Below, one piece after another: positions 21,220 through 46,600 of a stretch of DNA of 64,000 nt. Below the pieces are notes generated by a model that was not told the origin of the DNA, did not search any database, and worked only from the letters and a program-made list of their open reading frames with translations. Made by a program: the position numbers and the translations under genes. The DNA is from an uncultured bacterium (lineage in GTDB: Bacteria > Omnitrophota > Omnitrophia > Omnitrophales > Aquincolibacteriaceae). Location: NCBI GenBank assembly GCA_964482725.1, contig CAYZYT010000003.1:49252-113251 (forward strand), given 5' to 3'. Position 1 is the stretch's first letter. Every line of letters starts with the position of its first letter.

Positions 21220-22731
21220 ATGAATTTTCCAGAAGACCTTCGCAATCAGATCAAGACGCACATTGCCGAGCGTTGCGGCCTTTATTTTCGCGATCACGAC
21301 CTCCGAAACCTTGAAGCGGGTGTGAGCCAGAGGATGAAAGCTTGCGGCTTCGATTCTGTCCATTCCTATTATCTCCATCTGACGACCTCCGCAGAAAAAG
21401 AAGCGGAGTTTCGCGAACTTCTCAATCTCCTTACGATCAATCACACCTATTTTTTCCGCAATGAGCCGCAGTTCCTGGCCTTTAAAGACAAAGTGCTCCC
21501 CGAGCTTATCGAGTTGCGGATGCGGCAGGTGATCCAATATAAAACCGAACAAAAACCGAAGCTCCGGATCTGGAGCGCAGGCTGCTCCACGGGCGAAGAA
21601 CCGTATACGATTGCCATGATCCTGCGTGAAGCGATCCCGCACCCTGAGGATTGGGATATCGAGATCCTGGCGACAGACGCGTCATCGGAAGCTATGGAAA
21701 AAGCCAAGCGGGGGATCTATAACGAGAATTCCATGCGGCTGGTGGAAGAGTCTTACCGGAGCAAATATTTTATCAAGTCTGTTTTTGCGAGGTCCCATGA
21801 GGAATGGAAGATCTCTGACGAGATCAAGAGAATGGTCCGATTTGGTTTTCTGAATCTTGTGGGCGATCCCTATCCTCCGGAGCTTGATGTTATTTTTTGT
21901 CGCAACGTGACCATTTATTTCGAGAATAAAACTACCATCAAAATTATGGAAGATTTTGCCGCGACCCTGACGGATCCCGGCTATCTTTTTCTGGGGTACT
22001 CCGAGAGTTTGCAGTTCCTTACAGATAAATTCCGCATGGCGAGCTGGCAGGATGGTATCTACTACCGAAAGGCGACCGAAAAAGACGAAGAGGCGGCGCC
22101 CGTAGCCTGGGGGCCGGAGGAACAGGAAGTGGAAGCCTATGTCGAGTCGATGCCACTTCCGGCGCTTGTCGCGATCACCGAAAACAAGCAACCCGTGGTT
22201 CTCTCCTCCGAAGAGTTTGAAGCTGTGCGCCAGCAGATCATCCGTTTTATTTATCTCAAGGAATATTCTAAAGCCATGGATTTGATCGAAAAGGTCTCTG
22301 TAGAGGGCGAAAAAATAGCCGATATACATTATCTGGCAGCGGATATCTATGCCAACCGGAACCAGCATCAAGATGCGAAGGCAAGGCTCCGGAAAGCCTT
22401 GGCGGTTGATTCTCTCTTTGCGCCGGCTTATTATCTTTTAGGCTGCATTTATCTGGATGAGAGTAAAAACGATCAGGCCAAAGAGAGCCTCTTGAAAGCG
22501 CTCTATATCGACAAAGATTTTATCATGGCGCGTTTTTATATGGCGCATCTGTTCCGGAGCGAGGGACGGACGAGTGAAGCGATCCGGGAGTACCGGAACA
22601 CGCTGGCCGCCCTTTCCAAAGGGGTGCCCAGTCCGAGAAGTCAAATGATCTTGCAAAGCAGCGGGTTCAGCCCCGCGACCCTAAAAAGTGTTTGTTGCGA
22701 TAATCTCGAACGTCTGAAGATGGAGTCCTGA
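21220..22731 (+). CDS. cheR: Chemotaxis protein methyltransferase CheR with C-terminal TPR repeats
   Basis: It carries the CheR SAM-binding motifs (LRIWSAGCSTGEEPYTIAMIL ... ILATDASSEAMEKAKRGIY ... DVIFCRNVTIYF), followed by TPR-like repeats of about 150 aa (AADIYANRNQHQDAKARLRKALAVD...). Confidence 0.9.
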   Translation: MNFPEDLRNQIKTHIAERCGLYFRDHDLRNLEAGVSQRMKACGFDSVHSYYLHLTTSAEKEAEFRELLNLLTINHTYFFRNEPQFLAFKDKVLPELIELRMRQVIQYKTEQKPKLRIWSAGCSTGEEPYTIAMILREAIPHPEDWDIEILATDASSEAMEKAKRGIYNENSMRLVEESYRSKYFIKSVFARSHEEWKISDEIKRMVRFGFLNLVGDPYPPELDVIFCRNVTIYFENKTTIKIMEDFAATLTDPGYLFLGYSESLQFLTDKFRMASWQDGIYYRKATEKDEEAAPVAWGPEEQEVEAYVESMPLPALVAITENKQPVVLSSEEFEAVRQQIIRFIYLKEYSKAMDLIEKVSVEGEKIADIHYLAADIYANRNQHQDAKARLRKALAVDSLFAPAYYLLGCIYLDESKNDQAKESLLKALYIDKDFIMARFYMAHLFRSEGRTSEAIREYRNTLAALSKGVPSPRSQMILQSSGFSPATLKSVCCDNLERLKMES

Positions 22732-23195
22732 TGAAGACCCTTATTTTTTCGATCGGCGAAAAAGATTACGGGGCGGACATTGCCCAGGTCCGGGAAGTCA
22801 TCCGGATGAGAAAAGTGACACGTGTCCCGGAAGCGCCTTCTTTTGTCGAAGGGGTGATCAGTCTTCGTGGCCGCGTCATTCCGCTCATCAATCTTCGGAA
22901 AAAGCTCGGCATGAAGTCTGAAGCGGTGCCGTCCAATCGCATTGTGGTGACCACGATCCAGAACCACTGGGCGGGAATCTTGGTGGACCTGGTCAAGGAT
23001 GTTGTGACGCTTCAATCAGAAGATATTGTCAAGCCGGACGAAGTACTTCAAAGCGTGACCTATCTTCTCGGGGTTGCCAAGTGGGAGGGCCGGGTGGTTC
23101 TCCTGGTGGACCTCACAGGGTTTCTGCGCGGAGAAGAATCCGCGGGGCTCCAAATGGTCCAGGAACGCGTTGAGATCAAAAAAAAGGAATCCTAA
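22731..23195 (+). CDS. cheW: CheW-like coupling protein
   Basis: 154 aa with a CheW fold (FSIGEKDYGADIAQVREVIRMRKVTRVPEAPSFVEGVISLRGRVIPLINLR). Its start overlaps the cheR stop (TGATG). Confidence 0.85.
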   Translation: MKTLIFSIGEKDYGADIAQVREVIRMRKVTRVPEAPSFVEGVISLRGRVIPLINLRKKLGMKSEAVPSNRIVVTTIQNHWAGILVDLVKDVVTLQSEDIVKPDEVLQSVTYLLGVAKWEGRVVLLVDLTGFLRGEESAGLQMVQERVEIKKKES

Positions 23196-23719
23196 TGACC
23201 GGGGATCAAGACAAAATTTATATCGATTCTGAGGGCGATGAATTTTCTGAGGAGATAAGTCATAAAAAGCTTCTTCGTGTGTTGGTTTTTTCTCTCGGGA
23301 AAGAAAATTATTGCGTGGATGTCCGTCAGGCCAAAGAGGTCATGAAAATGCCGGAAACGACCCGGGTTCCGAACGTTCCTGCCTTTGTGCTTGGCGTGGC
23401 AAACCTCCGCGGCGAGATCATCAGCATTCTTGATATGCATTATTTCTTCGGACTAGAACCGCAGGGAAAGTCCCAGGATGTTCGCGTCATCGTCACCGAT
23501 CTGAGCGGCGAGGCGGTCGGGCTTCGGGTGGACCGGGTGAACGATACGATCGGGATCAATGAAGACGAGATCCAGGTGCCTCTGGCAACGCTCCGAGGGA
23601 ATCTTGCGGCTTATACTAAGGGGCAGATAGCCCAAGGTGGAGAGATACTGATCTTTCTGGATCTCGACAAGGTTTTGCGCTGCGATGAGATGCAACGCTT
23701 GAGAAAAGGGGAAGGATAG
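23195..23719 (+). CDS. cheW: CheW-like coupling protein (second copy)
   Basis: 174 aa (FSLGKENYCVDVRQAKEVMKMPETTRVPNVPAFVLGVANLRGEIISILDM). Confidence 0.85.
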   Translation: MTGDQDKIYIDSEGDEFSEEISHKKLLRVLVFSLGKENYCVDVRQAKEVMKMPETTRVPNVPAFVLGVANLRGEIISILDMHYFFGLEPQGKSQDVRVIVTDLSGEAVGLRVDRVNDTIGINEDEIQVPLATLRGNLAAYTKGQIAQGGEILIFLDLDKVLRCDEMQRLRKGEG

Positions 23720-23929: not shown

Positions 23930-25807
23930 ATGGCAAACTTATTGCGGAAGAGTCTTAAAGTCCGGGTGTTCGTGACATTCCTCGCGGTGGCGATCGTCGC
24001 GGTGTCTTTGCTGGGCGTGGTCGCGTATTTTTCAGGCCGGCGAATACTGCAGAAACAAATTCTTGATAGCTATAAGAACATTTCAGACTCAAGGGAAGGA
24101 GAGATCGTCATGTCCCTTGACGAGGCTAAGGCCGAATTTGCGCTTTTGGCCGGGGATTATCATATTCGGGAGCTCACGGAAAAGATTGTTAAAAACGATT
24201 TGGAAGCGGCGCGATCGCTCCAGGAACTTGTCGCCTATGCCAGGGCGCTTCTCGCGACAGGGAAGAACAGCTACGAATATTTCATTGTGGATATGCGGGG
24301 TAAGATCCTCGCCTCGACCGATGAGGCGCATATCGGAATCGACCGGGCGAAAGATGCGTATTTTATCAACGGACAAAAGCAGCTTTATATCAAAGATATC
24401 GGCAAATCCGAAATCACCGGCCAAGTCGGGTATGTGGTGGCGGGTCCGCTTCACTCGGTGGGCTCCGGGGAACTTTTGGGGGTGTTCTGCATTCGCCGAA
24501 ATCTTGAGCAAATGAACGCCATTATTTCAAATCACGAGGGCATGGGAGAAACCGGGGATATCTATATTGTTAATAAGGATGGATATTTGTTCACGAATTC
24601 CGCGTTTGAGGCAGCAGAGGCTCTCAAGAAAAGGATCGAGACTGAGCCCGTCCAGCTCTGGCAGTCGCAGAGAAAAGAATTAACGGGCCTCTACCGGGGA
24701 TTTGCAGGACAAATGGTGCTGGGCTCTTCGCATGGAGCGGATCTCTTAAAGGCCACGAACGACCTGGGATGGCTCTTGATCGCCAAGATCGACGCGCAGG
24801 AGGCTTTCGCACCAGTCCAGAAATTGGGTTTCACGATCCTCATGATCGGCTGCATCATCAGTATTCTGGTGGCACTCATCGCTTATCGTATTGCCAGCGG
24901 CATTGTCAACCCCATTACCGCGATCGCTCAGATCGCCCAAAGGGTGGGAGAAGGCGATCTGACTCATAATGTCGCGGAGACGACCGCTCAGGATGAGATC
25001 GGAAATCTGACAGCCGGTTTCAGGGCCATGATCACCGGACTCCGTAATATTTTGATGAAAGTCCAGGAAGCCACGGGGCAGATCACTGCTTCCGGTACCG
25101 AGATCCTTGCAGCGTCCCAGCAACAGGCCTCGGCGGCGCGGGAGCAATCTTCCGCGGTTGCGGAAACATCGTCAGCGGCGAAGGAGCTCTCCACAACCTC
25201 GGAGTCCGTGGGCGAAAGCATCAAGAAGGTCGCGCAAGTTGCGTCCCACGCCATGGCCGGAATGGCGAAGATCAAGGAATCGATCGATAAAACGAACGGG
25301 ATGCTGAACTCTCTTGGGGAGAAATCCCAAAAGATCGGGAAGATCACCGATCTTATCGATGACGTGGCCGACCAAACGAATCTTTTAGCTGTGAATGCTT
25401 CGATCGAAGCCGCGCGTGCCGGAGAACAGGGCCGAGGGTTTACGGTCGTGGCTGATGAGATCCGAAAACTTGCGGATTCGACCGCAAAATCCACCAAAGA
25501 TATCACGGGGCTGATCGAACTGATCCAGCACGAGATGTCGAACGCGATCATGTCGATGGAGCAAAGCATTCAGAGCGTGGATGAAGAGGCGCGGCTCGCG
25601 CAGCAGACCACGGAAAAGACCAAAGAGATCGCGATGAGCACGCACCAGCAGATTTCGGGCGCCAAACAGATCGCGGAAGCGATGATGAATATCGACGAGA
25701 CCATGAAACAGGTGGCCGCCGGGGCGCAGCAATCCCAGGTCGCCGTCAAACAGCTTACGGCCATGGCCGGGGAATTGAATCACCTGGCGTCGAAGTTCAA
25801 GCTGTAA
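23930..25807 (+). CDS. Methyl-accepting chemotaxis protein with a large periplasmic (double-Cache-like) sensor, HAMP and MCP signalling domain
   Basis: The layout is TM1, a periplasmic region of about 280 aa, TM2, HAMP ([23 protein letters not shown]), then an MCP signalling domain ([31 protein letters not shown]). Confidence 0.9.
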
Positions 25808-25968: not shown

Positions 25969-27477
25969 GTGAAGAAGAGTTTGGGGATCAGGGGAAAATT
26001 CATGATAGCGTTGCTGGGGATCTTGTTCCTCGGCGGCGCCTTGATGATGGCTTGGCTTTATTATTCTTCGCACGAGAATGTGAAGCGCCAAGCGATCCAG
26101 GGGGCGACGGTCCTGTCGGAGTCGATCCATGAAGCCGTCTATGGATTTATGCGGACCGGTCAGCAGAGCGATCTTGAGGCTTATCTTGAAAAAGGGAGCA
26201 AGATTCAATCGGTCGATGAGATCCGGGTGATACGAACCGATGTTCTGGAAAAAGAGCTGAGTGCAAAAAAAGATGGTTACGTGAAAGATGCTCTTGACCA
26301 GCAGGCGCTGAGTTCTGGTCAGATCCAACGGAAAATAGTGATCGCCGGGCGCGGGGAAGCCACCCGGATCGTTTCGCCGGTGATCGCGGAAAAATCATGC
26401 GTTGCCTGTCATGCGAGTGCCCGGGAAGGCGGGGTGATGGCCCTTTTGAGGACGACGGTCGTGTTCCAGTCGAGCCTGGATGCGATGAGGAGGGATCTGC
26501 TTAGGGCCGGTTTTATGCAGACCCTGATCCTGGTGATCGTGATCGGGGCAATTTTTATGCTGATTAGCAGGCTGATGGTGAATCCCTTGAATTCTCTGGC
26601 GGCGGTCGTCGATCTTGTTTCCAATGCCGACCTGACGCAGGAAGTGAAGGTCGGATCCCAGGATGAGATTGGCAGGCTCGCCGTAAGATTCAACAATATG
26701 ACGGCAGGGTTAAAGAATATTATAAAAAAAGTTCAGGAAGCTACGGGCCACATCACGACGGCGAGCCGTGAGATCCTTCTGGCGTCGCAGAAGCAGGCTT
26801 CAACCGCCCGAGAGCAGTCGTCCGCTGTGGCGGAAACGACGACCGCGGCCCAGCAACTGACCTCGACCTCCGTGCAGGTCGGGGAGAACAGCCGGAAGGT
26901 CGCCCAGGTGGCGGGTCATGCCCTGGAAGGGATGGCCAAGATCAAAAAAGCTATTTCCAAGACCCATGCAATGCTGGCGGAACTGGGCGAAAAATCTCAA
27001 AGGATCGGGACGATCACGGAACTGATCGATGATGTGGCGGATAAGACCAACCTGTTGGCGATAAATGCCTCGATTGAAGCGGCGCGTGCAGGAGAGCAAG
27101 GGCGCGGGTTTACGGTGGTCGCCTGTGAGATCCGCAAACTCGCGGATTCGACCGCCGCCTCAACCCAGGATATTACGGCGCTGATCGAGCTCATCCAACA
27201 TGAGATGTCCGATGCCATTGTCTCGATGGAAGAAAGCGTTCAGGGCGTGGACGAAGAGATGCGTCTTGCCCATCAGACCACGGAGAAGACCAAAGAGATT
27301 GAGACGAGCACGCACCAGCAGATCGCGGGCGTTCGGCAGATATCAGAGGCGATGATGAGCATCGATGGTGCGATGAAGCAGATCGCGACCGGTTCTCAGC
27401 AGTCGCAGGTCTCGGTCAAGCGGCTCGACGAGCTGGCCGGAGAATTGAAACAACTGGCCTCGAAGTTCAAGTTGTAA
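25969..27477 (+). CDS. Methyl-accepting chemotaxis protein with a small periplasmic sensor carrying a CXXCH c-type heme-binding motif
   Basis: The layout is TM1, a periplasmic domain of about 140 aa containing EKSCVACHAS (nt 26398-26412), TM2, HAMP, then an MCP signalling domain. The signalling domain is near-identical to that of the upstream MCP. Confidence 0.85.
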   Translation: MKKSLGIRGKFMIALLGILFLGGALMMAWLYYSSHENVKRQAIQGATVLSESIHEAVYGFMRTGQQSDLEAYLEKGSKIQSVDEIRVIRTDVLEKELSAKKDGYVKDALDQQALSSGQIQRKIVIAGRGEATRIVSPVIAEKSCVACHASAREGGVMALLRTTVVFQSSLDAMRRDLLRAGFMQTLILVIVIGAIFMLISRLMVNPLNSLAAVVDLVSNADLTQEVKVGSQDEIGRLAVRFNNMTAGLKNIIKKVQEATGHITTASREILLASQKQASTAREQSSAVAETTTAAQQLTSTSVQVGENSRKVAQVAGHALEGMAKIKKAISKTHAMLAELGEKSQRIGTITELIDDVADKTNLLAINASIEAARAGEQGRGFTVVACEIRKLADSTAASTQDITALIELIQHEMSDAIVSMEESVQGVDEEMRLAHQTTEKTKEIETSTHQQIAGVRQISEAMMSIDGAMKQIATGSQQSQVSVKRLDELAGELKQLASKFKL

Positions 27478-27650: not shown

Positions 27651-29789
27651 GTGGCTTTCGATAAATCAAAATTCATCGACCAGTTCAAAACCGAGACGCG
27701 GGAGCGCATCCAGACGCTCAGTCTTGGCTTGCTGAAGCTTGAGAAAAATCCCTCGGACCGTGAACTTTTAAATTCCATGATGCGGGAGGCCCACAGCATT
27801 AAGGGCGGGGCCGGCATGATGGGGTACAAACGGATCGCGGACATCACCCATAAAATGGAAGACGGTCTTCAGCGAGCTTTGAACGGTCAAATCACCCTTA
27901 CAAAAACTTGTTTCGAAATGCTTTTTAAGTGCCTGGATGCCGTCGAGCCGCTTCTTCAGGATAAAGTGACCTGGAACGATCGCGGGATCAACCGAGACTT
28001 CACGGAAGATCTCTGCGTTTTGGCTGAAAAGATTTTTTCAGGAAATTTCAAGGGAGAAATCCCTCCGACGGTGGAAGCCGCGGTGGCATGTGCGGTGCCT
28101 GAAGCTCCGTTGGCGTCTGAACCCGAGGCGCCCCTGCCGCCGGCTTCGGAACCTGCGGCACCCGTGGAGGACAGTGTTCGGGTGGATATCGAAAAACTGA
28201 ACCGTCTGATTAATCTTTCCGGGGAGCTGCTCATTTCCAAAATTCGTCTCGAAGAACTTTCCAAAAACCTTTTGGAGAAAGCGGAAGCTCAGGGAGAAGC
28301 GTACGGGGTTTTCAGCGGAGTGGTGAAGGATCTGACCGCGGTGACGGACCGAATTGATCTCCTGACTGAGAACATGCAGGATGAAATGATGAAGGTGCGG
28401 ATGTTGCCGGTGGCTTATCTCTTCAATACGTTCCCCAGGGCGATGAGGGATCTTGCCCAGTCAAAAGGCAAGGGAATCGATCTTGTGATCGAGGGACAGG
28501 AGACCCATCTGGATAAAGCGATCCTAGATGAGATGAAAGTTCCTCTCATGCATCTTTTAAGGAATTCGGTGGATCATGGGATCGAATCTCCTGAGGAGAG
28601 GATAAGACAGAACAAGCCGGCTGTTGGGAAGATCTGTCTTTCTGCCACCCAAGAGGGTTCTCAGGTGGTCATTGCGGTAACGGATGATGGCCGCGGGATC
28701 GATGTGGCCAAGGTCAAGGAGATCGCGGTCGCGAAGGGGCTTGTTTCGCGAGAAAATATTCAGTCCATGGTGGATGAACAGGTCTTCCAGTTGCTTTTTG
28801 CCCCCGGGTTCAGCACGAGTGAAGAAGTGACCGAGATCTCGGGGCGCGGGGTCGGGCTTGATGTGGTCCGGGAAACGGTGATCCGGCTGAAGGGCATGGT
28901 GGAGGTCAGCTCCGATCCTTCTTTAGGGACGAGCTTTATCATCCGTTTGCCGCTGACACTTGCGATCACCAAAAGTCTTCTCGTGATGGCAGGAAGCGAT
29001 ACGTACGCCATCCCGGTCGATTCGGTGATCGAAACGGTCCGCATCGATCTGGACAATCTGAAGACTGTCGAGACCAAAGATGTGATCACCGTCCGCGGGC
29101 ACATTTTGCCGGTCGTGAAGTTGCATGATATTTTCGGGCTTCCCGCGAAAGGGATCCTGGAAAAGAAGTTTTTCCCCGTCCTGATCGTTCAGTCCGTTGA
29201 AAAAAGGGTCGGCCTCCTGGTGGATGAGCTTATCGGGCGCCAGGAGATCATCTCCAAAAGCATGGGGGATCCCTTGAAGCATGTGAAGCACATTTCGGGT
29301 GCGACGATCCTGGGAAGCGGGAAAGTGGTGATGATCCTGGATATCCCGTCGATCATCCATTCGGCGGAGGGCGGGGTGGTGCGGCCGTCGGAGGCAAAGC
29401 CCAAGGGGGCCCCCGGCAAAAAGAAAAAAACGATCTTGCTTGCCGAAGATACGCTCACGACTGCCATGCTCGAGAAAAACATCCTGGAGTCGGTGGGCTA
29501 TTCGGTCGTTATTGCGCGCGACGGCCAGGAAGCGCTCGACAAGGCTTCCCAGGAGAAATTCGATCTTGTGATCTCCGACGTTTTGATGCCGCGCATGGAC
29601 GGGTTTGAGCTGGTGACGCGCCTTCGAAGAGAAAAAAATTATAAAGAAATTCCGATCATCATCGTGACCACGCGTGAAAGCGATGAAGATAAGCGCAAAG
29701 GTATGGAAGCCGGAGCGAATGCCTATCTTCTGAAAAGCGATTTTACTTCCGAAGGTCTTCTGGAGACGATCGAGCGACTGCTCGGGTAA
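27651..29789 (+). CDS. cheA: CheA histidine kinase fused to a C-terminal CheY-like receiver (CheA-REC hybrid)
   Basis: The domain series is Hpt (REAHSIKGGAGMMGY), dimerisation, HATPase (GRGVGLDVV), CheW-like, then REC (ILLAEDTL...DLVISDVLMPRMDGFEL...LLKSDF). A GTG start has a GGGGG RBS-like motif upstream. Confidence 0.95.
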   Translation: MAFDKSKFIDQFKTETRERIQTLSLGLLKLEKNPSDRELLNSMMREAHSIKGGAGMMGYKRIADITHKMEDGLQRALNGQITLTKTCFEMLFKCLDAVEPLLQDKVTWNDRGINRDFTEDLCVLAEKIFSGNFKGEIPPTVEAAVACAVPEAPLASEPEAPLPPASEPAAPVEDSVRVDIEKLNRLINLSGELLISKIRLEELSKNLLEKAEAQGEAYGVFSGVVKDLTAVTDRIDLLTENMQDEMMKVRMLPVAYLFNTFPRAMRDLAQSKGKGIDLVIEGQETHLDKAILDEMKVPLMHLLRNSVDHGIESPEERIRQNKPAVGKICLSATQEGSQVVIAVTDDGRGIDVAKVKEIAVAKGLVSRENIQSMVDEQVFQLLFAPGFSTSEEVTEISGRGVGLDVVRETVIRLKGMVEVSSDPSLGTSFIIRLPLTLAITKSLLVMAGSDTYAIPVDSVIETVRIDLDNLKTVETKDVITVRGHILPVVKLHDIFGLPAKGILEKKFFPVLIVQSVEKRVGLLVDELIGRQEIISKSMGDPLKHVKHISGATILGSGKVVMILDIPSIIHSAEGGVVRPSEAKPKGAPGKKKKTILLAEDTLTTAMLEKNILESVGYSVVIARDGQEALDKASQEKFDLVISDVLMPRMDGFELVTRLRREKNYKEIPIIIVTTRESDEDKRKGMEAGANAYLLKSDFTSEGLLETIERLLG

Positions 29790-37487: not shown

Positions 37488-37506
37488 GGTTCATGCCCTA
37501 TAGTGT

Positions 37507-38515: not shown

Positions 38516-38544
38516 TAAGATTTGTGCCCGATCACAGTTGTGGA

Positions 38545-38580: not shown

Positions 38581-38596
38581 ATCGAAAGGGTGATTC

Positions 38597-39730
38597 GTGA
38601 ATAAGAAGGGTTCGGCCCTGATGACGGTGCTTATCGTCGTCATCCTTATTCCCATTATTGTTTTTGCCACCACCAGTTTCATTACGTCTTCCTTGCTCCG
38701 CTACACCACGCAAAACAGGAACATCAAGGCCCTCTACCTTGCCCAGGCGGGGATCCATCGGGCCATTTACAAGATCAGGAACGGTGCGCCCGGCGCGCCT
38801 CTGACGGATTTTACCGACCATATCCCCCCAGGCTCGGACGACACAGCCCTTGTGCAACAGACGGGAATAAGTGGTAATGTCTATCAGGTCAAATCGACAG
38901 GAACCTCGGTTGCGGTAAATTATCCGACGCTGATCTCCCGAATGGTTTCTGTGCAATACAATGACAACACGAACAAAATCAGCCTTTGTGCTGAGGGGGA
39001 TGGCACCGGCTTTCCGCCTCTGTGTAGTGCGATTTGGTGGCCGTTTAGCGAGGGATCGGGATATACGACAGGGACCTCGCCCTATGGGGGCACTCTGACG
39101 CCTTCGACTGCAAACGGGCCGGCATGGACTACCGATCGTTATGGGGCCGCGGGGAAAGCGCTCAATTTTAATCAAGCCGCCACCACCAATTATGTGGTCG
39201 TTCCTGATTCTGCGGGGCTTGATCTCACCACCTCTGGAACACTCATGGCATGGATCCGTCCCTCTGCGATACCCAACCAAGCCCAACAGACCATTGTGCA
39301 TAAAGGGGGAGCTACGACAGCCACGAATGCTTATGCCCTTTTTCTTCGTCGACAGAGCACTAATCTAGCCAGAGTCCGATTTTGGATTTACAGTGGCACT
39401 GGGAATGGCACCCAATATTTGGCAAGTGGTGGTACGAATATGGGCCTTAACACTTGGTACCATATCGCCGGAGTTTGGGACTCAACCGGTTTGCGTGTCT
39501 ACCGCAATGGAGTGCCCGACGGTACTCTCGTGAGCGCCAATCGGGTGGCGAGGACTAATGCCAATTCCTTGTACATAGGTGCGAGTGGGACTTTGGCAGC
39601 AGCCCAAGAGTTTGCCGGGAAAATCGATGAAGTGTACATCTATGGTTGCCGAAAAACCGATGCGGAAATTAAGACTTATTACAATGCCACCTGCGCCGGA
39701 AGCGGCGCGACTCCTTGTCCGCAGCCTTGA
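38597..39730 (+). CDS. Minor pilin (PilX/GspK-like N-terminus lacking Glu5) with a C-terminal LamG/concanavalin-A-like jelly-roll domain
   Basis: A GTG start has a GAAAGGG RBS upstream. The N-terminus KKGSALMTVLIVVILIPIIVF is pseudopilin-like without E5. The C-terminal region (TLMAWIRP...WYHIAGVWDSTGLRVYRNGVPDG...SLYIGA...GKIDEVYIY) has a LamG-like pattern. Confidence 0.55.
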   Translation: MNKKGSALMTVLIVVILIPIIVFATTSFITSSLLRYTTQNRNIKALYLAQAGIHRAIYKIRNGAPGAPLTDFTDHIPPGSDDTALVQQTGISGNVYQVKSTGTSVAVNYPTLISRMVSVQYNDNTNKISLCAEGDGTGFPPLCSAIWWPFSEGSGYTTGTSPYGGTLTPSTANGPAWTTDRYGAAGKALNFNQAATTNYVVVPDSAGLDLTTSGTLMAWIRPSAIPNQAQQTIVHKGGATTATNAYALFLRRQSTNLARVRFWIYSGTGNGTQYLASGGTNMGLNTWYHIAGVWDSTGLRVYRNGVPDGTLVSANRVARTNANSLYIGASGTLAAAQEFAGKIDEVYIYGCRKTDAEIKTYYNATCAGSGATPCPQP

Positions 39731-39828
39731 TCCGGGGAATGAATGATAAACTCTAAACTCGAAATCCGAGACTCTAAACAAATTCAAATTTATGAAAACT
39801 CTAAACACTAGAGCGTCTCTCAATAGCG
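39731..39828. repeat. A/T-rich CTCTAAAC / CGAAATCCGAG repeat copy, same family as 16541-16650 and 29791-30360
   Basis: It contains ctctaaactcgaaatccgagactctaaacaaa...aaactctaaacacta. Confidence 0.4.
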
Positions 39829-40304
39829 TCGTCATCCTGAGCTTGCCCCGTTTTACGGGGCGGGCGAAGGATCTCACTTTGAGATTCTTCGGACTGCTGC
39901 CTTCTGCGAAGGCAAGAAGCAGGTCTCAGAATGACGCCTTTCTGCGAAAAGGTGTCACGCTGATAGAACTGATCATGGCCATGGTCATATTGGTCGCGAT
40001 CTCCATCCCGACGGCTTCTATGATCGGAGCGCAGATCCAGGGTATGGCCGAGTCTTCAGACCTTACGGCGGCCGGGAATGCGGCGCGAGCGCAGATGGAA
40101 AAACTCGAGAATACCGCCTATGGAAATGTCACGGCAAACAGCACCACCGTTTCTCCTTACGAGCTGAGCTGGGGCGTCGCGGAGACCGTGAATGGCACCG
40201 AAGCGATGAAAAATATTACGATGAGCATTCAGAGGACCGGGACGTCATCGGTTCTGTTGACGCTTTACAACACGTTCTGTAAGGGTGTGAGCGACGGCGA
40301 ATGA
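39792..40304 (+). CDS. Pseudopilin (type IV prepilin-like) whose 5' end is uncertain or disrupted by inserted repeats
   Basis: The mature-pilin-like segment G-VTLIELIMAMVILVAISIP starts at about 39951. The only in-frame ATG upstream is at 39792, and the 53 aa before the Gly are a read-through of the two repeat elements. No canonical start exists within 20 codons of the Gly. Confidence 0.45.
   Translation: MKTLNTRASLNSVVILSLPRFTGRAKDLTLRFFGLLPSAKARSRSQNDAFLRKGVTLIELIMAMVILVAISIPTASMIGAQIQGMAESSDLTAAGNAARAQMEKLENTAYGNVTANSTTVSPYELSWGVAETVNGTEAMKNITMSIQRTGTSSVLLTLYNTFCKGVSDGE
39829..39936. repeat. MITE-like nested palindrome element, copy E3 of the GTCATYC...GRATGAC family
   Basis: It reads cgtcatcctgagc ... 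ccccgttttacgggg ... gaaggatctcactttgagattcttc ... ctgccttctgcgaaggcaagaagcag ... ctcagaatgacg. Confidence 0.55.
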
Positions 40305-40383
40305 AAAATATCCGCGGGTTTACCCCGTTAGAGACTGGTCAAAGATCACTTCAGCTACGTTTTCCTGGTGAGGGGCAATAAGC

Positions 40384-40998
40384 ATGAACGCCTGGGTAGG
40401 GCAGGACTCGCGGAAGCGCTCAAAGAAGCGCTTCCTGTCTCTAACGGGGTTTACCCTTATTGAGCTTGTGATGGTAATTCTTATCGCGAGCGCTCTTTCC
40501 ATGGGCGGGTACTACATCATGCAGTTTATGGTCCAGAATACCTTCTACTTGCCGAACCAGGTCCAGACAGATCTCGCGGCCGCGCAGGCCTTGGAGACTT
40601 TGGTCGAAGGGGATACGGCGACCGTTCACGGATTACGTTTCTCAAGGACCGTAACGGCTCTTGCGCCCAACGACGTGACGGTGAAGGACCAGGATTGCGG
40701 AGATTTGAGGTTCTGGCTGGATACGGCGAATCACCAGCTCAAACGGCAGATTGGAGGGGGGGCCGAGACTGTGGTGCCGTATTTTATGCCTCCGAGTGTG
40801 TCTTTTACCGGATCCGGTGTCGGAGATGCTTTTTTCACTTATTACGATGGGTTGGAGGTAGAGACGAATGACCCTACCAAGGTGCGCCGCATCCAGATCA
40901 ATTTAATTGCTCAACAAGGAGCGGGTTCGGTCGATAGTTTTCAAGGGATCAGTCGTCAGAACACGTCCGTTAAAGTGAGTAAATATACATGCGTGTAA
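40384..40998 (+). CDS. Pseudopilin (prepilin-type N-terminal cleavage/methylation domain protein)
   Basis: The leader ...RFLSLTG is followed by FTLIELVMVILIASALSMGGYYIM. The mature part is about 180 aa. Confidence 0.6.
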   Translation: MNAWVGQDSRKRSKKRFLSLTGFTLIELVMVILIASALSMGGYYIMQFMVQNTFYLPNQVQTDLAAAQALETLVEGDTATVHGLRFSRTVTALAPNDVTVKDQDCGDLRFWLDTANHQLKRQIGGGAETVVPYFMPPSVSFTGSGVGDAFFTYYDGLEVETNDPTKVRRIQINLIAQQGAGSVDSFQGISRQNTSVKVSKYTCV

Positions 40999-41094
40999 AC
41001 CCGGAAGCTACCGTGTTTAGTTTATTCTTCCGGGTTAACGGTACGGTTCGGATCCATTAATTAAACACAACGGGTCATCATCGCCAGGAGTCTC

Positions 41095-42672
41095 ATGTCT
41101 TTTCTTTCTATAGAATTAGGGAAGCATCAGTTCAAGGTGCTTTTACTTGAAAGAGAGAAGGATGTTTTGGTGATCCGGCAAGATCTCGCTCTCATCATTC
41201 CTCCCGAGTTCATCAAATCCAAGATCCCCGAAGCGCTTAAGGATTTTATGCGGCGCTACGATGTTACGGATCACAAGATTTTTTTGACCCTTTCGGACCC
41301 GAGCGTGATCACCCTTAAGAATGCTGTGTTCCCCCTGATGGCGACAGGCGAACTTGTGGCGGCGATCGCATGGCACGCCAAAGAAGAGGGGGTCTTGACG
41401 GAGGATGTGATCTTTTTTAGTTATGAGATCGTCAAGGAGTTCGAGGACTCCGAAGGCGCGAAGAAGGTCGCGGTGACGTATTCAACCGTGAACCGGAAGC
41501 TTCTCGAAGAGTCGATCCGGATGCTGAAGCGGATGGGCCTCGAGGTCCTCCATGTGAGTGCTGCGCCGCTCAACACCCCGAAGGTTTTGCCGGCTGCGGC
41601 AGACAAGTCTCAATCTCAGATGGTGCTGCATCTGGGGTATTCCTCTTCGACTTGTGTGATCTATAAAAATGGAAAACTGGTTTTTATGAGAACCTTGTCG
41701 TTCTCTTACGAGAAAACCCGGTTGAGTCTGAACGACCCGCTCTTTTTGGGGGCGAAGTTCAGAACCCCGGCAGCCGAGGCGGAGATCGAGAAGGCGATCC
41801 AGACGATCGGGATCCCTCACGAAGAATTCTCGGTCGGGAGCGGGGAGAACCAGGCCACGCAGTTTTTTGGTCTCATGCGACCGGTCTTGGAAGGTCTTGT
41901 CCGTGAGATCCGTTATTCCCTGACTTATTTTATGCAAAACTTAAGTGAAGAAAAGCCTTCGGCTTTGTTCCTGACGGGACATGGCACGAGATTCAAGGGC
42001 CTGGATCTTTATCTTAACAGAGAGTTGGAAATGCCCGTTTCAAACCTGAGGCTGCCTTCGTCAGCCCGGTGCGACCAGGCCGCTGTCCTTGAAGACCCGA
42101 TTCGGCTCAGTCAGTGTGTGAGTGCGGTGGCAGGACTTCTTCCGGGTGAGAAGAGCGCGGATTTCATGCCTTTTGAGATTAAAAGCCAGAAGTTCGAAAC
42201 TTTCCAGAGAAGTGTCTTGAAAATGGTTACGCTTGTTGCGGCGGGGCTCTGTGTGAGCTCATTCATTTTAGCGAATCTTCACGGGGTTTTTTTAAAGGAG
42301 CGTTTCGGGCTTGGAGAAAAAGAGCTTGCGAACTTCGGGAAATTCGCTCAGGCTTCAGCCCAGGCGTTCCCGAAGTATTATTTGACGCGCGAGTTGGAAA
42401 AAGCGACGATCCCTGCCGACAAAGTTTTGCGTCTCTTGGGGCATTTGATGCCCGGGGGGTTGGCGATGCGCCATTTTGAAGTCGATTCTTCAAGCCGTTC
42501 CATGGTGGCAGATCTTGAGACGTCCGGGTTGGATGAGGGGGGGAATCCGATGGTCGAGGACCTCCTCAGGAGGCTCCGGGAAACGGGATTTTTTAAAAGG
42601 GTCGATGCGAAGCCCGTGAACGGATATTCGGTGTCCGTTTACAGGCTCGAAGGAGTTTTCCGAAATGATTAA
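41095..42672 (+). CDS. pilM: PilM-like actin-fold ATPase with a fused C-terminal PilN-like bitopic domain
   Basis: The N-terminal ~350 aa are PilM/FtsA-like (a CAGGAG RBS precedes the start). A TM helix (VTLVAAGLCVSSFILANL) and a periplasmic domain of about 130 aa follow. Confidence 0.65.
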   Translation: MSFLSIELGKHQFKVLLLEREKDVLVIRQDLALIIPPEFIKSKIPEALKDFMRRYDVTDHKIFLTLSDPSVITLKNAVFPLMATGELVAAIAWHAKEEGVLTEDVIFFSYEIVKEFEDSEGAKKVAVTYSTVNRKLLEESIRMLKRMGLEVLHVSAAPLNTPKVLPAAADKSQSQMVLHLGYSSSTCVIYKNGKLVFMRTLSFSYEKTRLSLNDPLFLGAKFRTPAAEAEIEKAIQTIGIPHEEFSVGSGENQATQFFGLMRPVLEGLVREIRYSLTYFMQNLSEEKPSALFLTGHGTRFKGLDLYLNRELEMPVSNLRLPSSARCDQAAVLEDPIRLSQCVSAVAGLLPGEKSADFMPFEIKSQKFETFQRSVLKMVTLVAAGLCVSSFILANLHGVFLKERFGLGEKELANFGKFAQASAQAFPKYYLTRELEKATIPADKVLRLLGHLMPGGLAMRHFEVDSSSRSMVADLETSGLDEGGNPMVEDLLRRLRETGFFKRVDAKPVNGYSVSVYRLEGVFRND

Positions 42673-43252
42673 TGTCCAAAAGGACCGGATCACTTATTCC
42701 CAGATCGCGATCTTTGTATGGGCGCTTTCGATCGTGCTGGGGGTTGTTCTTTTTTTTCAGTTCGTGGATGGTCCGGCAGATTTACGAGTGCTGGGGATCC
42801 GTGAGCGTCTGGATGTTATTGAAACCCGGCTGAAGTGGATGACCCAGACCATTGACACGATCCAGGATCCCGTAAAGGTCCTGGAATATTTCAAGGAGAA
42901 GGATCGGGATCTTGACCGAAGGTTTCCTGATGCGGCGGAGAAGTCTTTGCTGATGCTGACGGAGTATGCCAACAAATTTGGGCTTCGGGTCGAACGGATC
43001 CAGGCGGAAAGACCGCGGAAGGTTGTGAGCGCTCGCGGGGGGCCGCTTGACGCGGAAGGAAAGATTTGTTATGGAGTGCAGGTTTCCCTTAGGTTTAAAG
43101 GGGAGTACTACAACCTCGTTAAGTATCTCGATGCCTTGCGCAAGGTGGTCCCGGCTTTTCTGGTCGTGAGGGATATCTCGATCGATAATAAGTTTTCGTC
43201 TGGGCCGAAGCTCGAAGGTACTCTGGATCTGAGTCTCTACCTCCTGGAGTGA
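42665..43252 (+). CDS. pilO: PilO-like inner-membrane pilus assembly protein
   Basis: It has an N-terminal TM, a coiled coil, and a C-terminal ferredoxin-like region (VSLRFKGEYYNLVKYLDALRKVVPAFLVVRDISI). It overlaps the upstream gene. Confidence 0.5.
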   Translation: MINVQKDRITYSQIAIFVWALSIVLGVVLFFQFVDGPADLRVLGIRERLDVIETRLKWMTQTIDTIQDPVKVLEYFKEKDRDLDRRFPDAAEKSLLMLTEYANKFGLRVERIQAERPRKVVSARGGPLDAEGKICYGVQVSLRFKGEYYNLVKYLDALRKVVPAFLVVRDISIDNKFSSGPKLEGTLDLSLYLLE

Positions 43253-43734
43253 TGATGCAAAAAAAAGTGGCTTTCCAACTGGGTGTGATCGGGGTCATGG
43301 CGCTTGCCTTGGTGCTTATGAGTATTCCTCTTTTTAAGAAGGGGACGGGGGGCTCCAAGAAGCTTTCGACGTCCCCTGCCGCGTCCGGGCTTGCGTCCAA
43401 TGCGGGTCTCGGGCGGACGGATTCCTCCGGGCCAACGATCAAGTTGCGGCATATAAAGGACGATAAATTCTATGAGAGGCTTAGCCGTGTTGCGGAGGCT
43501 TTGCCCCTGGCTCGCGATCCTTTTTCTTTTACTTTTACAGGTCCCAAGAGTCTGCGCGATGGTATGGAGCTTGCAGGGATCCTCTGGGAAGGTGAAAAGC
43601 CCATCGCGATCATTAATCAGTCATTTTTTAATGTCGGAGATTCCAACGAGCAATTCAGCGTGATCAAGATCTTGCAGGACCGGGTGGTGTTAAAAGATAG
43701 AACCGGAGAGTTCGAACTTCGCCTGAAACAGTAG
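43249..43734 (+). CDS. pilP: PilP-like lipoprotein or bitopic pilus assembly protein
   Basis: It has an N-terminal hydrophobic segment, the conserved RDPF motif (LARDPFSF), and a C-terminal beta domain. Confidence 0.45.
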   Translation: MMMQKKVAFQLGVIGVMALALVLMSIPLFKKGTGGSKKLSTSPAASGLASNAGLGRTDSSGPTIKLRHIKDDKFYERLSRVAEALPLARDPFSFTFTGPKSLRDGMELAGILWEGEKPIAIINQSFFNVGDSNEQFSVIKILQDRVVLKDRTGEFELRLKQ

Positions 43735-43818
43735 TACGTCATGGGATCAATTCGTCCTGGATTTGTAGGACAGGTTTCAATCTGCCCTACCTCAGTAGGT
43801 GAATTCACGGGAGGCATC

Positions 43819-45363
43819 ATGAAGGCTCGACTTTGGATTTTTTTAGCTTTTTTTATGGGGGTGTCGGCATTTCTAGCCGGTGCCGCGGAGCCCGGTTTGA
43901 GCAGCCTTAAATTCAAGGATACTGAGATCTCGACGGTGCTGAAGGCCATTGAGAAGAAAGCGGGTCTCGAAGGGAAAAAGATCACGATCGTGACAACGCC
44001 CGAGGTGTTTGGACTCGTGACGGTGGATCTCGAGAATGTCGATTGGAAGACCGCGTTCAAGGTTATTCTCAAGATGTACGATCTCGGTTATACCCAGGAC
44101 GGGAATATTCTTACGGTCTCCACCCTCACCAAGATCGGGGATGACCAGAAAAAAGAGGATGATGCTCTTTTTGCCTCCGGCGGGATGAAGATCGAAGCCT
44201 TCAAGCTCAAGCATGTTGAAGCCGCCGATGTCGCAAAAATGATCACGCCCTTTCTTTCTGAAAAAGGGAAAGTCTCCGTCATGGATGTTGTGAATAAGCA
44301 GGGATGGGGTTTTTCCGCGAGTACGAGCGGGCAAACCAGTGTGGGGGATGGAGCCTCTTCCGGAAATAGTGGTTCCTCCAATCAGACCCAAGCGCCGCAA
44401 AATACGACCAAAATGACACGGACCAAGATCTTGGCGGTTTCTGATACGCCGATCGTGGTGCGTCAGGTCGCAAAGCTCATTGAAGAAGTGGATGTGGCGC
44501 CCAAGCAGGTCCTGATCCGTGCGATCCTTCTGGAAGTGGTGCAGAACAAACTTTTTGATCTCGGTCTTGATTTTGGGACCCTCGACACGAAGGGAACTGC
44601 GGGAGATATTTTTAACAAGGATTATAAGCTGGGGGCTGCCAGCCGGTTTTCCGAAACACCGAGTGCTTTCAAACCCTTTGAAACAGGGATGACCTCGGCT
44701 AATTCGGGGCTTAAATTTGGATTTTCAAAAATGCAAGGCACGCAATTTGAAGTAACTTTGCATGCGCTTCAAGAAGATAAAAACACCAACACCCTGTCCA
44801 CGCCTACGATCCTCACTCTCGATGGCCGCGAGGCCACGATCTTGGTTGGGCAGCAATATCCGATCGTCGACACTACGTCGAGCACCAATGTCAATAACAC
44901 GGTGGGGGGGTCGCTCAATTATTATCAGAATATCGGGATCCAGCTTCGCGTGGTGCCGCAGATCGTCGGCGATAACGAAGACCGGGTGAATCTCATCGTC
45001 CACCCCACAGTTTCCAATAAAAACGAGACGGTTAAAGTCAAAGGAGGCGCTGACGGTCTCGCCACCATAGCCGAATATCCTATTATCGATACCCGCGAAG
45101 CTGAGACTCAGATGGTGATCGATGATGGAGATACCGTGGTGATGGGCGGACTCTTGAGTGATGCGAAAACAAAAGAGTTGGCCGGAGTGCCTTTCTTGAG
45201 CGATATCCCGCTTTTGGGGAAAATCTTTGACAGACTGACGAAAAATGGCGAGAAGAAAGACCTTGTGATCTTTCTGACCGTGAAGATCGTTCGTCCCTCC
45301 ATGGTGCTTCCCGCGGATGTTTTGGACCGGACGAAGATCGACCAAATGACCAAAGGCTTATGA
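43819..45363 (+). CDS. pilQ: Type IV pilus secretin PilQ/MshL family
   Basis: A GGGAGG RBS precedes the start. It has a signal peptide, N domains, and the secretin C-domain with the signature GGLLSDAKTKELAGVPFLSDIPLLGKIFD. Confidence 0.85.
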   Translation: MKARLWIFLAFFMGVSAFLAGAAEPGLSSLKFKDTEISTVLKAIEKKAGLEGKKITIVTTPEVFGLVTVDLENVDWKTAFKVILKMYDLGYTQDGNILTVSTLTKIGDDQKKEDDALFASGGMKIEAFKLKHVEAADVAKMITPFLSEKGKVSVMDVVNKQGWGFSASTSGQTSVGDGASSGNSGSSNQTQAPQNTTKMTRTKILAVSDTPIVVRQVAKLIEEVDVAPKQVLIRAILLEVVQNKLFDLGLDFGTLDTKGTAGDIFNKDYKLGAASRFSETPSAFKPFETGMTSANSGLKFGFSKMQGTQFEVTLHALQEDKNTNTLSTPTILTLDGREATILVGQQYPIVDTTSSTNVNNTVGGSLNYYQNIGIQLRVVPQIVGDNEDRVNLIVHPTVSNKNETVKVKGGADGLATIAEYPIIDTREAETQMVIDDGDTVVMGGLLSDAKTKELAGVPFLSDIPLLGKIFDRLTKNGEKKDLVIFLTVKIVRPSMVLPADVLDRTKIDQMTKGL

Positions 45364-46163
45364 CGGCACTTCAGGAATTCTACGGATACAGGACCCAGCC
45401 TTTCAATATCACCACGAACGCGGAACTCTTCTTTCAAGGTTCATCCCATCAGGAGGCGCTTGCCTCGTTGATGTATGGTATTGAAGAACGCAAGGGGCTG
45501 ATCCTGATCACCGGGGAAGTGGGGACGGGGAAGACCACGCTTTGTAAAGCGCTGCTGGAACGGTTGCCGCAGTCGGTGAGGACTTCCTTCATCATGAGCC
45601 CGTATTTTAGCGATATTCAGCTTCTGCAGGCGATCGTGGAAGATTTTGGCCTTGAGCCAGAGAAAAAGACGCGCTTGGACATTATTAAGAAACTGGACGC
45701 TTTTTTGATCGATCTCAGTCTGAATCAGGGGAATGCGGTATTGATCATCGATGAAGCTCAAAACCTCAAGGCCCGGCAGCTCGAGCAGGTCCGGCTTCTT
45801 TCGAATCTTGAGACGAAGCACGGGAAGCTCCTCCAGATCGTGCTTGTGGGGCAGCCGGAGCTTAAGGAGCATCTCGAACGCTATGATCTGAGGCAGCTTT
45901 ATCAGAGGATCGTGATCAAATATGAGCTGCGTCCTCTGGAGTTTGCGGATGTGAAAGCCTATGTGGATTTCCGGATTGAGCATTCGGGAATGACCGGTCT
46001 CTTTATCCCCCCCGAAGGATATCGTATGATCCATGAGTTCTCAAAGGGGATCCCGCGGCTTGTGAATCTTCTGTGCGATCGGGCGCTCTTACTCGGATTT
46101 GTTCGGAAAGAAAAAGTTTTGGGGACGGATGTTTTTGTCGCTGCGATGGAAGAGATCCGATGA
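45360..46163 (+). CDS. ExeA/GspA-like AAA ATPase (MshM-like)
   Basis: It has Walker A GEVGTGKTTLCKAL and Walker B VLIIDEAQNL. It is co-oriented with the secretin and overlaps it by 4 nt. Confidence 0.8.
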   Translation: MTALQEFYGYRTQPFNITTNAELFFQGSSHQEALASLMYGIEERKGLILITGEVGTGKTTLCKALLERLPQSVRTSFIMSPYFSDIQLLQAIVEDFGLEPEKKTRLDIIKKLDAFLIDLSLNQGNAVLIIDEAQNLKARQLEQVRLLSNLETKHGKLLQIVLVGQPELKEHLERYDLRQLYQRIVIKYELRPLEFADVKAYVDFRIEHSGMTGLFIPPEGYRMIHEFSKGIPRLVNLLCDRALLLGFVRKEKVLGTDVFVAAMEEIR

Positions 46164-46600
46164 GCATTGTTTACGATTATCTGAAGCAGATCCAGGCGAA
46201 AAAGCCTTTGGAAAAGGTGACTCCGGAGGTTCTTTCGTCGGTTCCTTCTCCGGTCAAGAAAAAGGCCGGATCTCCACTCGGGATGAAAATTGGAGTTGGG
46301 GTTTTGGGGTGTCTTTTGCTGGCTTCTGGCCTGTATTTTTTTCTTCCGAAGGGCGAAAAGACCACGATCAAGGTTTACCAGGCTCCGGAAAAGCCCAAGG
46401 TGGCTCAGTCCGAGAATCCTGGCGAGGGTTGTATCCTCGAAGGGATCATTTACAATCCTTCCCGGCCCTTTGCGATCATTAATGGCAAAATGCTTGAGGT
46501 GGGTGGGCGGATCGGTGATTTTGAAGCCACGCAGATAACGGCTGATTCCGTGTCGCTCAAGAACTTAAAAGACGGTTCTTCCCGCACCATCCGATTGTAA
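46160..46600 (+). CDS. Bitopic membrane protein, GspB/PilP-like partner of the ExeA-like ATPase
   Basis: It overlaps the upstream gene (ATGA). It has a TM helix (IGVGVLGCLLLASGLYFFL) and a C-terminal beta domain (FAIINGKMLEVGGRIGDFEATQI). Confidence 0.4.
   Translation: MSIVYDYLKQIQAKKPLEKVTPEVLSSVPSPVKKKAGSPLGMKIGVGVLGCLLLASGLYFFLPKGEKTTIKVYQAPEKPKVAQSENPGEGCILEGIIYNPSRPFAIINGKMLEVGGRIGDFEATQITADSVSLKNLKDGSSRTIRL

Follow-up and report, generated by a model that had tools for sequence, protein, structure and literature searches.

How chemosensory systems control type IV pili is known from a few models only, namely the Pil-Chp system of Pseudomonas aeruginosa, the Frz system of Myxococcus xanthus and the cyanobacterial Tax/Pix systems, and in these the pilus motor is reached indirectly or through special adaptor domains. 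The locus described here lies in a stretch of 64,000 nucleotides (the window) from an uncultured bacterium of the phylum Omnitrophota (assembly GCA_964482725.1, contig CAYZYT010000003.1), where a chemosensory (che) gene cluster runs directly into the genes of a type IV pilus machine. The chance that the first signals to this pilus machine is considered slightly better than even, and the link between both is probably functional.

The Pil-Chp system is a chemosensory system for type IV pili and, as the window does, comprises a CheA with a C-terminal receiver (REC) domain, single-domain receivers (two in Pil-Chp) and CheR and CheB homologues. Its gene order is pilG-pilH-pilI-pilJ-pilK-chpA, the receptor PilJ is of the 40H type, ChpA has about nine Hpt domains and the output goes largely through cyclic AMP and a polarity dependent on FimV/FimL. 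The window, by contrast, reads cheR-W-W-MCP-MCP-cheA-cheB, its REC genes lying downstream of these, and the classes of CheA and of the methyl-accepting chemotaxis proteins (MCPs) are different. The Frz system contains two CheW-type proteins, an MCP, a CheA-REC kinase (FrzE), CheB and REC-only outputs steering type IV pilus-dependent motility. It also shares with the window a CheR extended by tetratricopeptide repeats (CheR-TPR; FrzF, PMC3447774), but its receptor is cytoplasmic, its outputs FrzX and FrzZ have the polarity module MglA/MglB as their target and are not encoded beside pilB, a REC-containing histidine kinase (REC-HK) is absent and the genes are not joined to a pilus cluster.

The Che3 system of the alphaproteobacterium Rhodospirillum centenum, likened to the window by architecture, is a chemotaxis-like cluster in which a CheA-REC kinase is accompanied by another histidine kinase that contains a REC. 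In this system CheA3 phosphorylates a receiver of the hybrid kinase CheS3, and the single-domain receiver CheY3 is phosphorylated by CheS3~P only (PMC3868531). Its output is cyst development, it has one CheY3 against four paralogues in the window and it includes no organelle genes. Receivers acting directly on the extension ATPase have been described in Xanthomonas, where DrdR, which consists of REC only, stimulates the ATPases PilB and PilT on binding to them (PMC13507683), and in Synechocystis, where PATAN-REC regulators (PixG, PixE and others) bind PilB1 (bioRxiv 10.1101/2021.06.11.447907). DrdR is an orphan with two RECs in tandem and PATAN is present in the cyanobacterial proteins, whereas the candidates in the window, encoded directly 5' of pilB, form a distinct family of plain single RECs.

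The block in the window (21220-46600, + strand) comprises 26 genes in a gap-free same-strand run, identified from the open reading frame listing and from Pfam and NCBIfam scans (Table 1). The first half is formed by CheR-TPR, two CheW, two MCPs, CheA-REC, a gene of the 23S_rRNA_IVP family (IVP), CheB, REC-HK and four stand-alone RECs (Y1 to Y4); the second by pilB, pilC, two pilins, a minor pilin with a LamG domain, two N_methyl proteins, a pilM-N fusion, pilO, pilP, the secretin, an ExeA-like ATPase and a GspB-like gene. Chance is no concern for the block, because domain E-values go from 1e-17 to 1e-137. The supercluster and its gene order on the + strand, including the extra REC-HK and the four single-REC genes, are as given in the original prediction, which had called the order uninterrupted and had overlooked the IVP gene between cheA and cheB. 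The genes it named pilP and gspB-like are in place, but neither has a family match and both are positional calls.

The orthologues of this CheA are more than 120, with identities of 55-89%, and the named ones are almost all labelled Omnitrophota or Omnitrophica. The closest PilB in a scan of one genome per species (83% identity) belongs to a metagenome-assembled genome labelled Candidatus Omnitrophica. Identical proteins are present in Logan assemblies of SRR12261223 and SRR12261224. Eleven orthologous che clusters of Omnitrophota, the window among them, were compared (CheA 57-100% identical). The che cluster is followed by one or more REC genes and then pilB in five of the eleven: the window, L167, L168, L083 and L172, and these differ in the number of RECs (1-11), the presence of REC-HK and the gene order. 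L167 (CheA 87%) presents cheB, REC-HK, one REC, pilB, pilC, pilin, LamG, two pseudopilins and pilM, and L168 (CheA 73%) cheB, four RECs, pilB and pilus genes, lacking REC-HK. In L083 (CheA 64%) a PAS-containing histidine kinase and two RECs are located 5' of cheR, and cheB is followed by two RECs and pilB to pilP with hardly any intergenic space. L172 (CheA 59%) has 11 stand-alone RECs, two histidine kinase-GGDEF (HK-GGDEF) hybrids and a PAS protein between cheA and pilB. L165 and the P0012 contig (CheA about 85%), as well as L166 (CheA 75%), have REC-HK followed directly by MscS, with neither REC array nor pilus. Finally, L169, L170 and L171 (CheA 57-63%) have cheB, at least one REC and other signalling genes, and no pilus within 10 kb. 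REC-HK orthologues after cheB were identified in L165, L166, L167 and the P0012 contig. The che-pilus junction is thus recurrent, variable and dispensable. Conservation of the supercluster in related genomes, a matter raised in the original prediction, was therefore found in part of the orthologous clusters, and the lineage-specific wiring which it proposed applies to the junction, limited to an Omnitrophota clade, and does not extend to the kinase, stand-alone REC and PilB, which are found together in several phyla.

Y1 to Y4 are 59-74% identical to one another and separated by gaps of 28-62 nt, and the stop codon of Y4 overlaps the start of pilB by 4 nt. Y1 groups with the REC that comes first in L168, and Y4 with the pilB-adjacent REC of L168, L167 and L003 (a related pilus locus); the array is therefore older than these lineages. 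Of 76 PilB loci with sufficient upstream sequence, 35 reach a PilB identity of 46% or more, and 19 of these have a single REC within 400 bp 5' of pilB; among the 41 below that value the number is 3. The RECs preceding pilB have a common signature (LDLMLPKxDGYKVCRxLKFD..IPII), retain the residues of a phospho-switch (acidic pocket, phospho-accepting Asp, Thr/Ser, Tyr and Lys) and belong to records labelled Omnitrophota, Planctomycetota/Planctomycetia, Elusimicrobia, Margulisiibacteriota and others. Y1 to Y4 fall inside this family together with the cheB-adjacent single RECs of the pilus-less L170 and L171; CheY of Escherichia coli falls outside, and so do the RECs that are part of CheA, CheB and REC-HK. 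Cytoplasmic histidine kinases are usually encoded beside a pilB-preceding REC, and their input is GAF, PAS, PilZ or REC-PAS. In the clade of the window this input consists of a REC alone, as would suit a place downstream of CheA. A cross-phylum module of REC-HK, REC and PilB was considered and rejected, since tblastn had matched the kinase core only and the Pfam inputs were those just mentioned; judged by gene content, the module shared across phyla is one of histidine kinase, stand-alone REC and PilB. No pilB-adjacent single receiver is among the PilB cofactors listed in a 2024 review. In L025, L028, L029 and L030 two PilB paralogues occur in tandem, with the REC directly 5' of the second copy and about 1.3 kb 5' of the first, and in L025 cheR and cheB are located between pilB and pilC.

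The path proposed for the window would start with receptor signals setting CheA autophosphorylation. CheA~P would phosphorylate the receiver of REC-HK, as CheA3 does with CheS3, REC-HK would in turn phosphorylate Y1 to Y4, and a Y4-type receiver would bind PilB and alter its activity or localisation, so that pilus extension would become responsive to chemical or redox cues. By analogy with the described systems, the order of phosphotransfer is likely from MCPs to CheA, to the REC-HK receiver, to its kinase, to Y1-Y4 and to PilB. The catalytic residues are conserved: the Hpt His of CheA in HSIKGG, the REC-HK H-box in HEFRTP and the receiver Asp residues. Because L168 lacks REC-HK, direct phosphorylation of the RECs by CheA is a variant that is just as possible. 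The likely use of the whole is attachment to surfaces or host cells and pilus-based movement by the Omnitrophota cell. As a wider and tentative possibility, the hitherto unrecognised cross-phylum REC family directly 5' of pilB might be a dedicated phospho-switch of the extension motor, fed in Omnitrophota by a complete methylation-adapting array through expandable REC/kinase relays (up to 11 receivers and HK-GGDEF hybrids), and it might give true pilus-based taxis or host-seeking. Surveys of Omnitrophota describe cells which are mostly ultra-small and host-dependent.

Several observations weigh against signalling from the che genes to the pilus. The connection of the REC family with PilB is putative and read from gene neighbourhoods. 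L165, the P0012 contig and L166 share the flanks of the window (LssY_C-M48 on one side and MscS-spermidine synthase on the other), and their che cluster ends at REC-HK. L003, with a PilB 83-85% identical, has REC-pilB-pilC-pilins directly after housekeeping genes, and che-pilus adjacency is therefore dispensable. L168 combines a REC array and a pilus in the absence of REC-HK. Promoter and terminator scans were at chance level, and a promoter-like site (10/12) in the 145-nt gap between REC-HK and Y1 would permit separate transcription. In addition, no PilT-like ATPase or PilB paralogue was identified in the 64-kb window by tblastn with PilB, and a retractile dynamic pilus is thus putative. The pilus-less clusters in identical flanks, the REC-pilus block found elsewhere in L003 and the gap with its promoter-like site would all be expected of two independent neighbours, that is, an ACF-type (alternative cellular functions) che system acting through REC-HK on a distant target, and a pilus operon under separate regulation, with its own receivers, moved alongside by rearrangement. 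The PilB-linked kinases of other phyla, with PAS/GAF inputs and no che genes, point in the same direction. Against such independence, the junction is present in five of the eleven clusters, including L083 and L172 with different gene order and relay composition; the cheB-adjacent RECs of pilus-less loci fall in the PilB-preceding family; and stray che genes were identified at other PilB loci (cheR and cheB in L025, cheW and an MCP in L026, cheW in L031). Independent neighbours are accordingly regarded as an unlikely explanation, and signalling from the che system to the pilus is retained as the preferred one.

Compared with L165 (14430-14492), L166 and the P0012 contig, the 13.7 kb that extend from Y1 as far as the GspB-like gene (window 32751-46770) are present or absent as a unit. 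At the junctions this comparison identified no repeats, tRNA genes or integrase, and the window contains no tRNA genes and no Rfam families. Insertion by a mobile element was rejected on the lack of junction repeats against L165 and L166 and of tRNAs and Rfam families in the window. The pilus proteins of L003 are as similar to those of the window as the ones of L168, which suggests, from sequence comparison, that the pilus block was relocated rather than lost. The relay of L172 (12143-22124; GCA_043813305.1, JBDRLC010000064.1) is unusually long and, with two HisKA-HATPase-GGDEF hybrids, one of them with MASE3-PAS, points to cyclic di-GMP (c-di-GMP).

By architecture, the chemosensory half is ACF-type and not Pil-Chp-type. 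The features of that type present in the window are a CheR with a short TPR region, a REC-HisKA-HATPase kinase in the cluster and a CheA-REC without P2 and with one CheW domain (PMC3447774, PMC10782961). CheR-TPR genes are found mainly in ACF-type clusters, and about 40% of the multidomain response regulators encoded by clusters with CheR-TPR bear a histidine-kinase module, REC-HisKA-HATPase (PMC3447774). The CheR-TPR architecture is identical in the orthologues of loci L165-L172. The CheA (712 aa) has a single Hpt (residues 8-97) and a C-terminal REC; residues 98-173 have no Pfam domain match, and about 135-173 form a Pro/Ala/Glu-rich linker. Both MCPs were assigned to class 36H because the C-arm past the hairpin tip is exactly 126 residues (18 heptads) and both align to residues 274-516 of E. 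coli Tsr with no gap, an alignment in which PcaY, a 40H receptor, requires two insertions of 14 residues. Glu/Gln occupy the Tsr methylation-site positions of this alignment. NCBIfam assigned generic CheA, CheW, CheB and CheR names only, and the CheA-architecture paper has no Omnitrophota entries in its supplementary tables. The output is apparently a pilus machine, an organelle of motility and adhesion, and the functional distinction between the ACF and type IV pilus (Tfp) classes is blurred here.

The original prediction had read the locus as a Tfp-class, Pil-Chp-like pathway with lineage-specific additions, attached to a pilus of the mannose-sensitive haemagglutinin (MSHA) type. The physical joining to pilus genes and the C-terminal REC of CheA, as in ChpA, agree with the first part of this reading. 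It is contradicted by the single Hpt, as 94% of Tfp CheAs are multi-Hpt (PMC10782961), by the 36H receptors and by the combination of CheR-TPR, CheA-REC and REC-HK, the published ACF signature (PMC3447774). In a metagenome scan with the window CheA the majority of the remoter matches were ChpA-like proteins of 1000-2500 aa with REC-REC-CheW-MCP-CheR upstream, and in a neighbour-joining tree of 73 CheA kinase cores the window CheA and that of L083 were placed outside this large multi-Hpt clade, among short single-Hpt CheA-REC proteins; the tree is rough, without support values, and excludes the ChpA-like clade only.

A flagellar F-class chemotaxis system merely adjoining pilus genes was also considered. 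Receptors of class 36H are typical of F7 systems (PMC7184735), and the core of the window CheA is no farther from the E. coli F7 CheA (distance 0.615) than from other CheAs. Flagellar or motor genes, however, were not identified among the open reading frames scanned in the 64 kb, and a CheA-REC without P2, CheR-TPR and REC-HK are foreign to F classes other than F3 and F5; F5 requires a double CheW domain, present in 99% of its CheAs and absent here (PMC10782961). The words 'chemotaxis' and 'flagell' are moreover absent from two genome surveys, the main Omnitrophota survey and a 2026 preprint on complete Omnitrophota genomes, both of which describe T4aP genes in abundance. As far as the window extends, F-class che genes with flagellar neighbours were not found, and a flagellar system is extremely improbable.

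The pilus half is, as classified from its proteins, type IVa pilus (T4aP)-like with accessory genes resembling those of type II secretion and MSH systems. Against relatives of solved structure PilB scored 517 bits with Thermus PilF, about 498 with Geobacter PilB, 480 with Myxococcus PilB and 423 with Vibrio cholerae EpsE, the T4aP alignments being full-length including MshEN and that of EpsE lacking an N-terminal match. All NCBIfam cut-offs were missed: by PilB for the PilB equivalog (607 against 675.65) and GspE (603.3 against 630), by PilC for GspF (348.9 against 424) and the Thermus PilC model (326, below its cut-off), and by the secretin for PilQ (222 against 284), GspD (215.7 against 351) and MshL (TIGR02519, 140.8 against 250.2). 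The ExeA-like ATPase has its best match in the PEP-CTERM-associated model TIGR03015 (263.5 bits against 324.5). The two major-pilin paralogues are 83% identical, and the two minor pilins or pseudopilins have one hydrophobic segment each, at the N-terminus. The LamG minor pilin, a candidate tip adhesin, has orthologues in L167 and L168, and the L083 orthologue of PilM-N matches both PilM_2 (5.6e-23) and PilN. The C-terminal domains of the GspB-like and PilP-like proteins are 36% identical over 47 aa (E 2e-7). The absence of PilT and PilD from the window, as stated in the original prediction, was also found in scans of the window open reading frames, where no prepilin peptidase appeared, and for PilT in the tblastn search with PilB.

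These scores leave room for a type II secretion-like pseudopilus, in which the sensory system would gate protein secretion. The GspE, GspF and GspD models nearly equal the pilus models, and for PilC the GspF model is the higher; the PilM-N fusion has GspL topology, the PilO-like protein matches T2SSM_b, one minor pilin is GspK-like, a GspA/GspB-like pair is present and PilT is missing from the window. The full-length agreement of PilB with T4aP PilF/PilB, the failure of every Gsp equivalog cut-off, the two pilin paralogues of abundant type, the adhesin-like LamG tip pilin and a published Omnitrophota survey counting such clusters as T4aP (PMC10066038) all speak against secretion, which is rated as quite improbable.

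For the MSHA label the comparison is with V. cholerae, whose system has an MshEN-domain ATPase, a PilM-N-type fusion (MshI) and an ExeA-like ATPase after the secretin, mshM following mshL in MSHA loci. All three features are shared by the window. The MshL score below its cut-off, a PilB closest to T4aP PilF/PilB, the PEP-CTERM model as best match of the ATPase, the different gene order and the lack of an MshN-like TPR gene, with a small GspB-like gene following the ATPase instead, do not support MSHA membership. MshE has two RLG-type c-di-GMP-binding motifs in MshEN, while PilB of the window has KLL... and SLE..., which makes a c-di-GMP input to PilB doubtful. Taken with the chemosensory evidence, a Tfp-class pathway on an MSHA-type pilus is very unlikely. 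The idea that loss of RLG tracks with the upstream REC was tried and rejected, since both perfect motifs are absent from 26 of 28 REC-linked and from 26 of 33 unlinked PilBs (n=61). Weak matches to Akkermansia families were identified for the PilO-like protein (Amuc_1100), PilM-N (Amuc_1101) and the secretin (Amuc_1098), and these sequence matches suggest that the Amuc_1100 pilus-like cluster and that of the window are related systems of Planctomycetes-Verrucomicrobia-Chlamydiae (PVC) type.

Table 1. Genes of the chemosensory and pilus block, with positions in the window and the evidence for each assignment
Feature	Position	Strand	Evidence
CheR with C-terminal TPR	21220-22731	+	CheR 1.3e-57 (residues 74-277), CheR_N; TPR_8 and others (residues 347-465)
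CheW (first)	22731-23195	+	Pfam CheW 3.8e-35
CheW (second)	23195-23719	+	Pfam CheW 1.2e-34
MCP 1: periplasmic dCache_1, HAMP, 36H signalling domain, transmembrane	23930-25807	+	Pfam
MCP 2: HAMP and MCPsignal, 36H, putative haem-c CVACH motif	25969-27477	+	Pfam
CheA-REC hybrid kinase	27651-29789	+	Pfam: Hpt, dimerisation, HATPase, one CheW, REC
Four-helix-bundle protein, 115 aa (23S_rRNA_IVP)	29896-30243	+	PF05635 2.6e-17; TIGR02436 80 bits
CheB with N-terminal REC	30352-31392	+	CheB_methylest 6.7e-57; NCBIfam NF001965 323 bits (cut-off 293)
REC-HisKA-HATPase hybrid kinase (REC-HK)	31557-32750	+	Pfam; H-box His and receiver Asp read in translation
Y1, stand-alone REC	32896-33285	+	Response_reg (1e-24 to 1e-27 across Y1-Y4)
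Y2, stand-alone REC	33314-33724	+	Response_reg
Y3, stand-alone REC	33765-34133	+	Response_reg
Y4, stand-alone REC	34196-34582	+	Response_reg
PilB-type extension ATPase with N-terminal MshEN	34579-36270	+	T2SSE 1.6e-137; MshEN 3.2e-19
PilC/GspF platform protein	36270-37487	+	T2SSF x2, 4.4e-51
Major pilin paralogue 1	37627-38034	+	N_methyl 1.6e-7
Major pilin paralogue 2	38141-38515	+	N_methyl 8.4e-7
GspK/PilX-like minor pilin with LamG (concanavalin-like) domain	38597-39730	+	Laminin_G_3 3.5e-29; weak GspK N-terminal match; TafC match
Minor pilin/pseudopilin 1 (true start probably later)	39792-40304	+	N_methyl 2.4e-4
Minor pilin/pseudopilin 2	40384-40998	+	N_methyl 2.8e-3
PilM-PilN fusion, GspL/MshI-like topology	41095-42672	+	PilM_2 7.4e-9 (residues 7-316); one transmembrane segment, about 373-400
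PilO-like	42665-43252	+	Weak T2SSM_b and Amuc_1100 matches only
PilP-like, no family match	43249-43734	+	Position between pilO and secretin; kept in L083 and L010
Outer-membrane secretin	43741-45363	+	Secretin 7.8e-44, Secretin_N, STN
ExeA/GspA-like AAA ATPase	45360-46163	+	AAA_22 7.3e-28
GspB-like, small, single-pass, no family match	probably 46157-46600	+	Position

Among the remaining features of the chemosensory genes, the two CheW proteins are 35% identical and their start and stop codons overlap by 1 nt. The cytoplasmic domain of MCP 2 is 74% identical to that of MCP 1. The haem attributed to MCP 2 in the original prediction agrees with a periplasmic CVACH (residues 144-148) between two hydrophobic, transmembrane segments (about 7-33 and 176-208), and the Mcp40H-20_sensor match of this receptor is sub-threshold (24.9 bits against a cut-off of 27). 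The IVP gene, which occupies the cheA-cheB slot also in L168 and L085, was considered as a che component and rejected, as its position shifts or the gene is absent in orthologous clusters. Across these clusters its slot is the one separating cheA from cheB, the one separating the cheW genes or one upstream of cheR, and elsewhere the gene is absent (L167 6842-7201; L168 12200-12559; L170 4947-5291; L085 about 7066); it is probably a hopping passenger and not a pathway component. Directly upstream of cheR (20790-21119) is a 109-aa protein with a signal peptide, a Q/E/K-rich helical sequence and no family assignment, conserved with identities of 66% (L165), 58% (L167 and L168) and 44% (L166), which may be a member of the che operon.

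The block is preceded by RND (resistance-nodulation-division) efflux genes, HAMP-SpoIIE, HAMP-HD-GYP, LssY_C and an M48 peptidase, and followed by MscS, a spermidine-synthase-like membrane protein, Memo/AMMECR1, radical SAM genes and a glycosyltransferase (GT2). Genes of c-di-GMP signalling recur beside these che clusters, being of the HAMP-HD-GYP type, GGDEF-HD-GYP, an HK-GGDEF fusion or a PilZ gene (window 13513-14910; L170 15123-16667; L171 15947-17329; L169 13902-16982; L166 519-860). Two RND efflux systems flank the region on opposite strands (window 6905-12824 and 56954-61464), each with an outer-membrane factor and an AcrB-type pump (1047 and 1050 aa) and the first also with a membrane-fusion protein. 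The Memo-AMMECR1 fusion (50043-51812) adjoins a radical SAM enzyme (51670-52824), an arrangement kept in L165, L166 and the P0012 contig.

The single elements are already known, namely pili under chemosensory control, ACF clusters whose output is a REC-HK and receivers that bind PilB, and the main Omnitrophota genome survey identified T4aP in nearly all classes. What is new is the combination, namely an ACF-architecture array joined to a pilus cluster, a variable REC relay between both and a stand-alone REC before pilB in several phyla. In the neighbourhoods of the window and its relatives a candidate path can be followed all the way from the receptor to the motor, its last step being a plain receiver whose gene overlaps the start of pilB. 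If this path is true, it would represent a simple and widespread phosphorylation switch for pilus extension, and would provide a testable hypothesis on how Omnitrophota aim their pili at surfaces or host cells.

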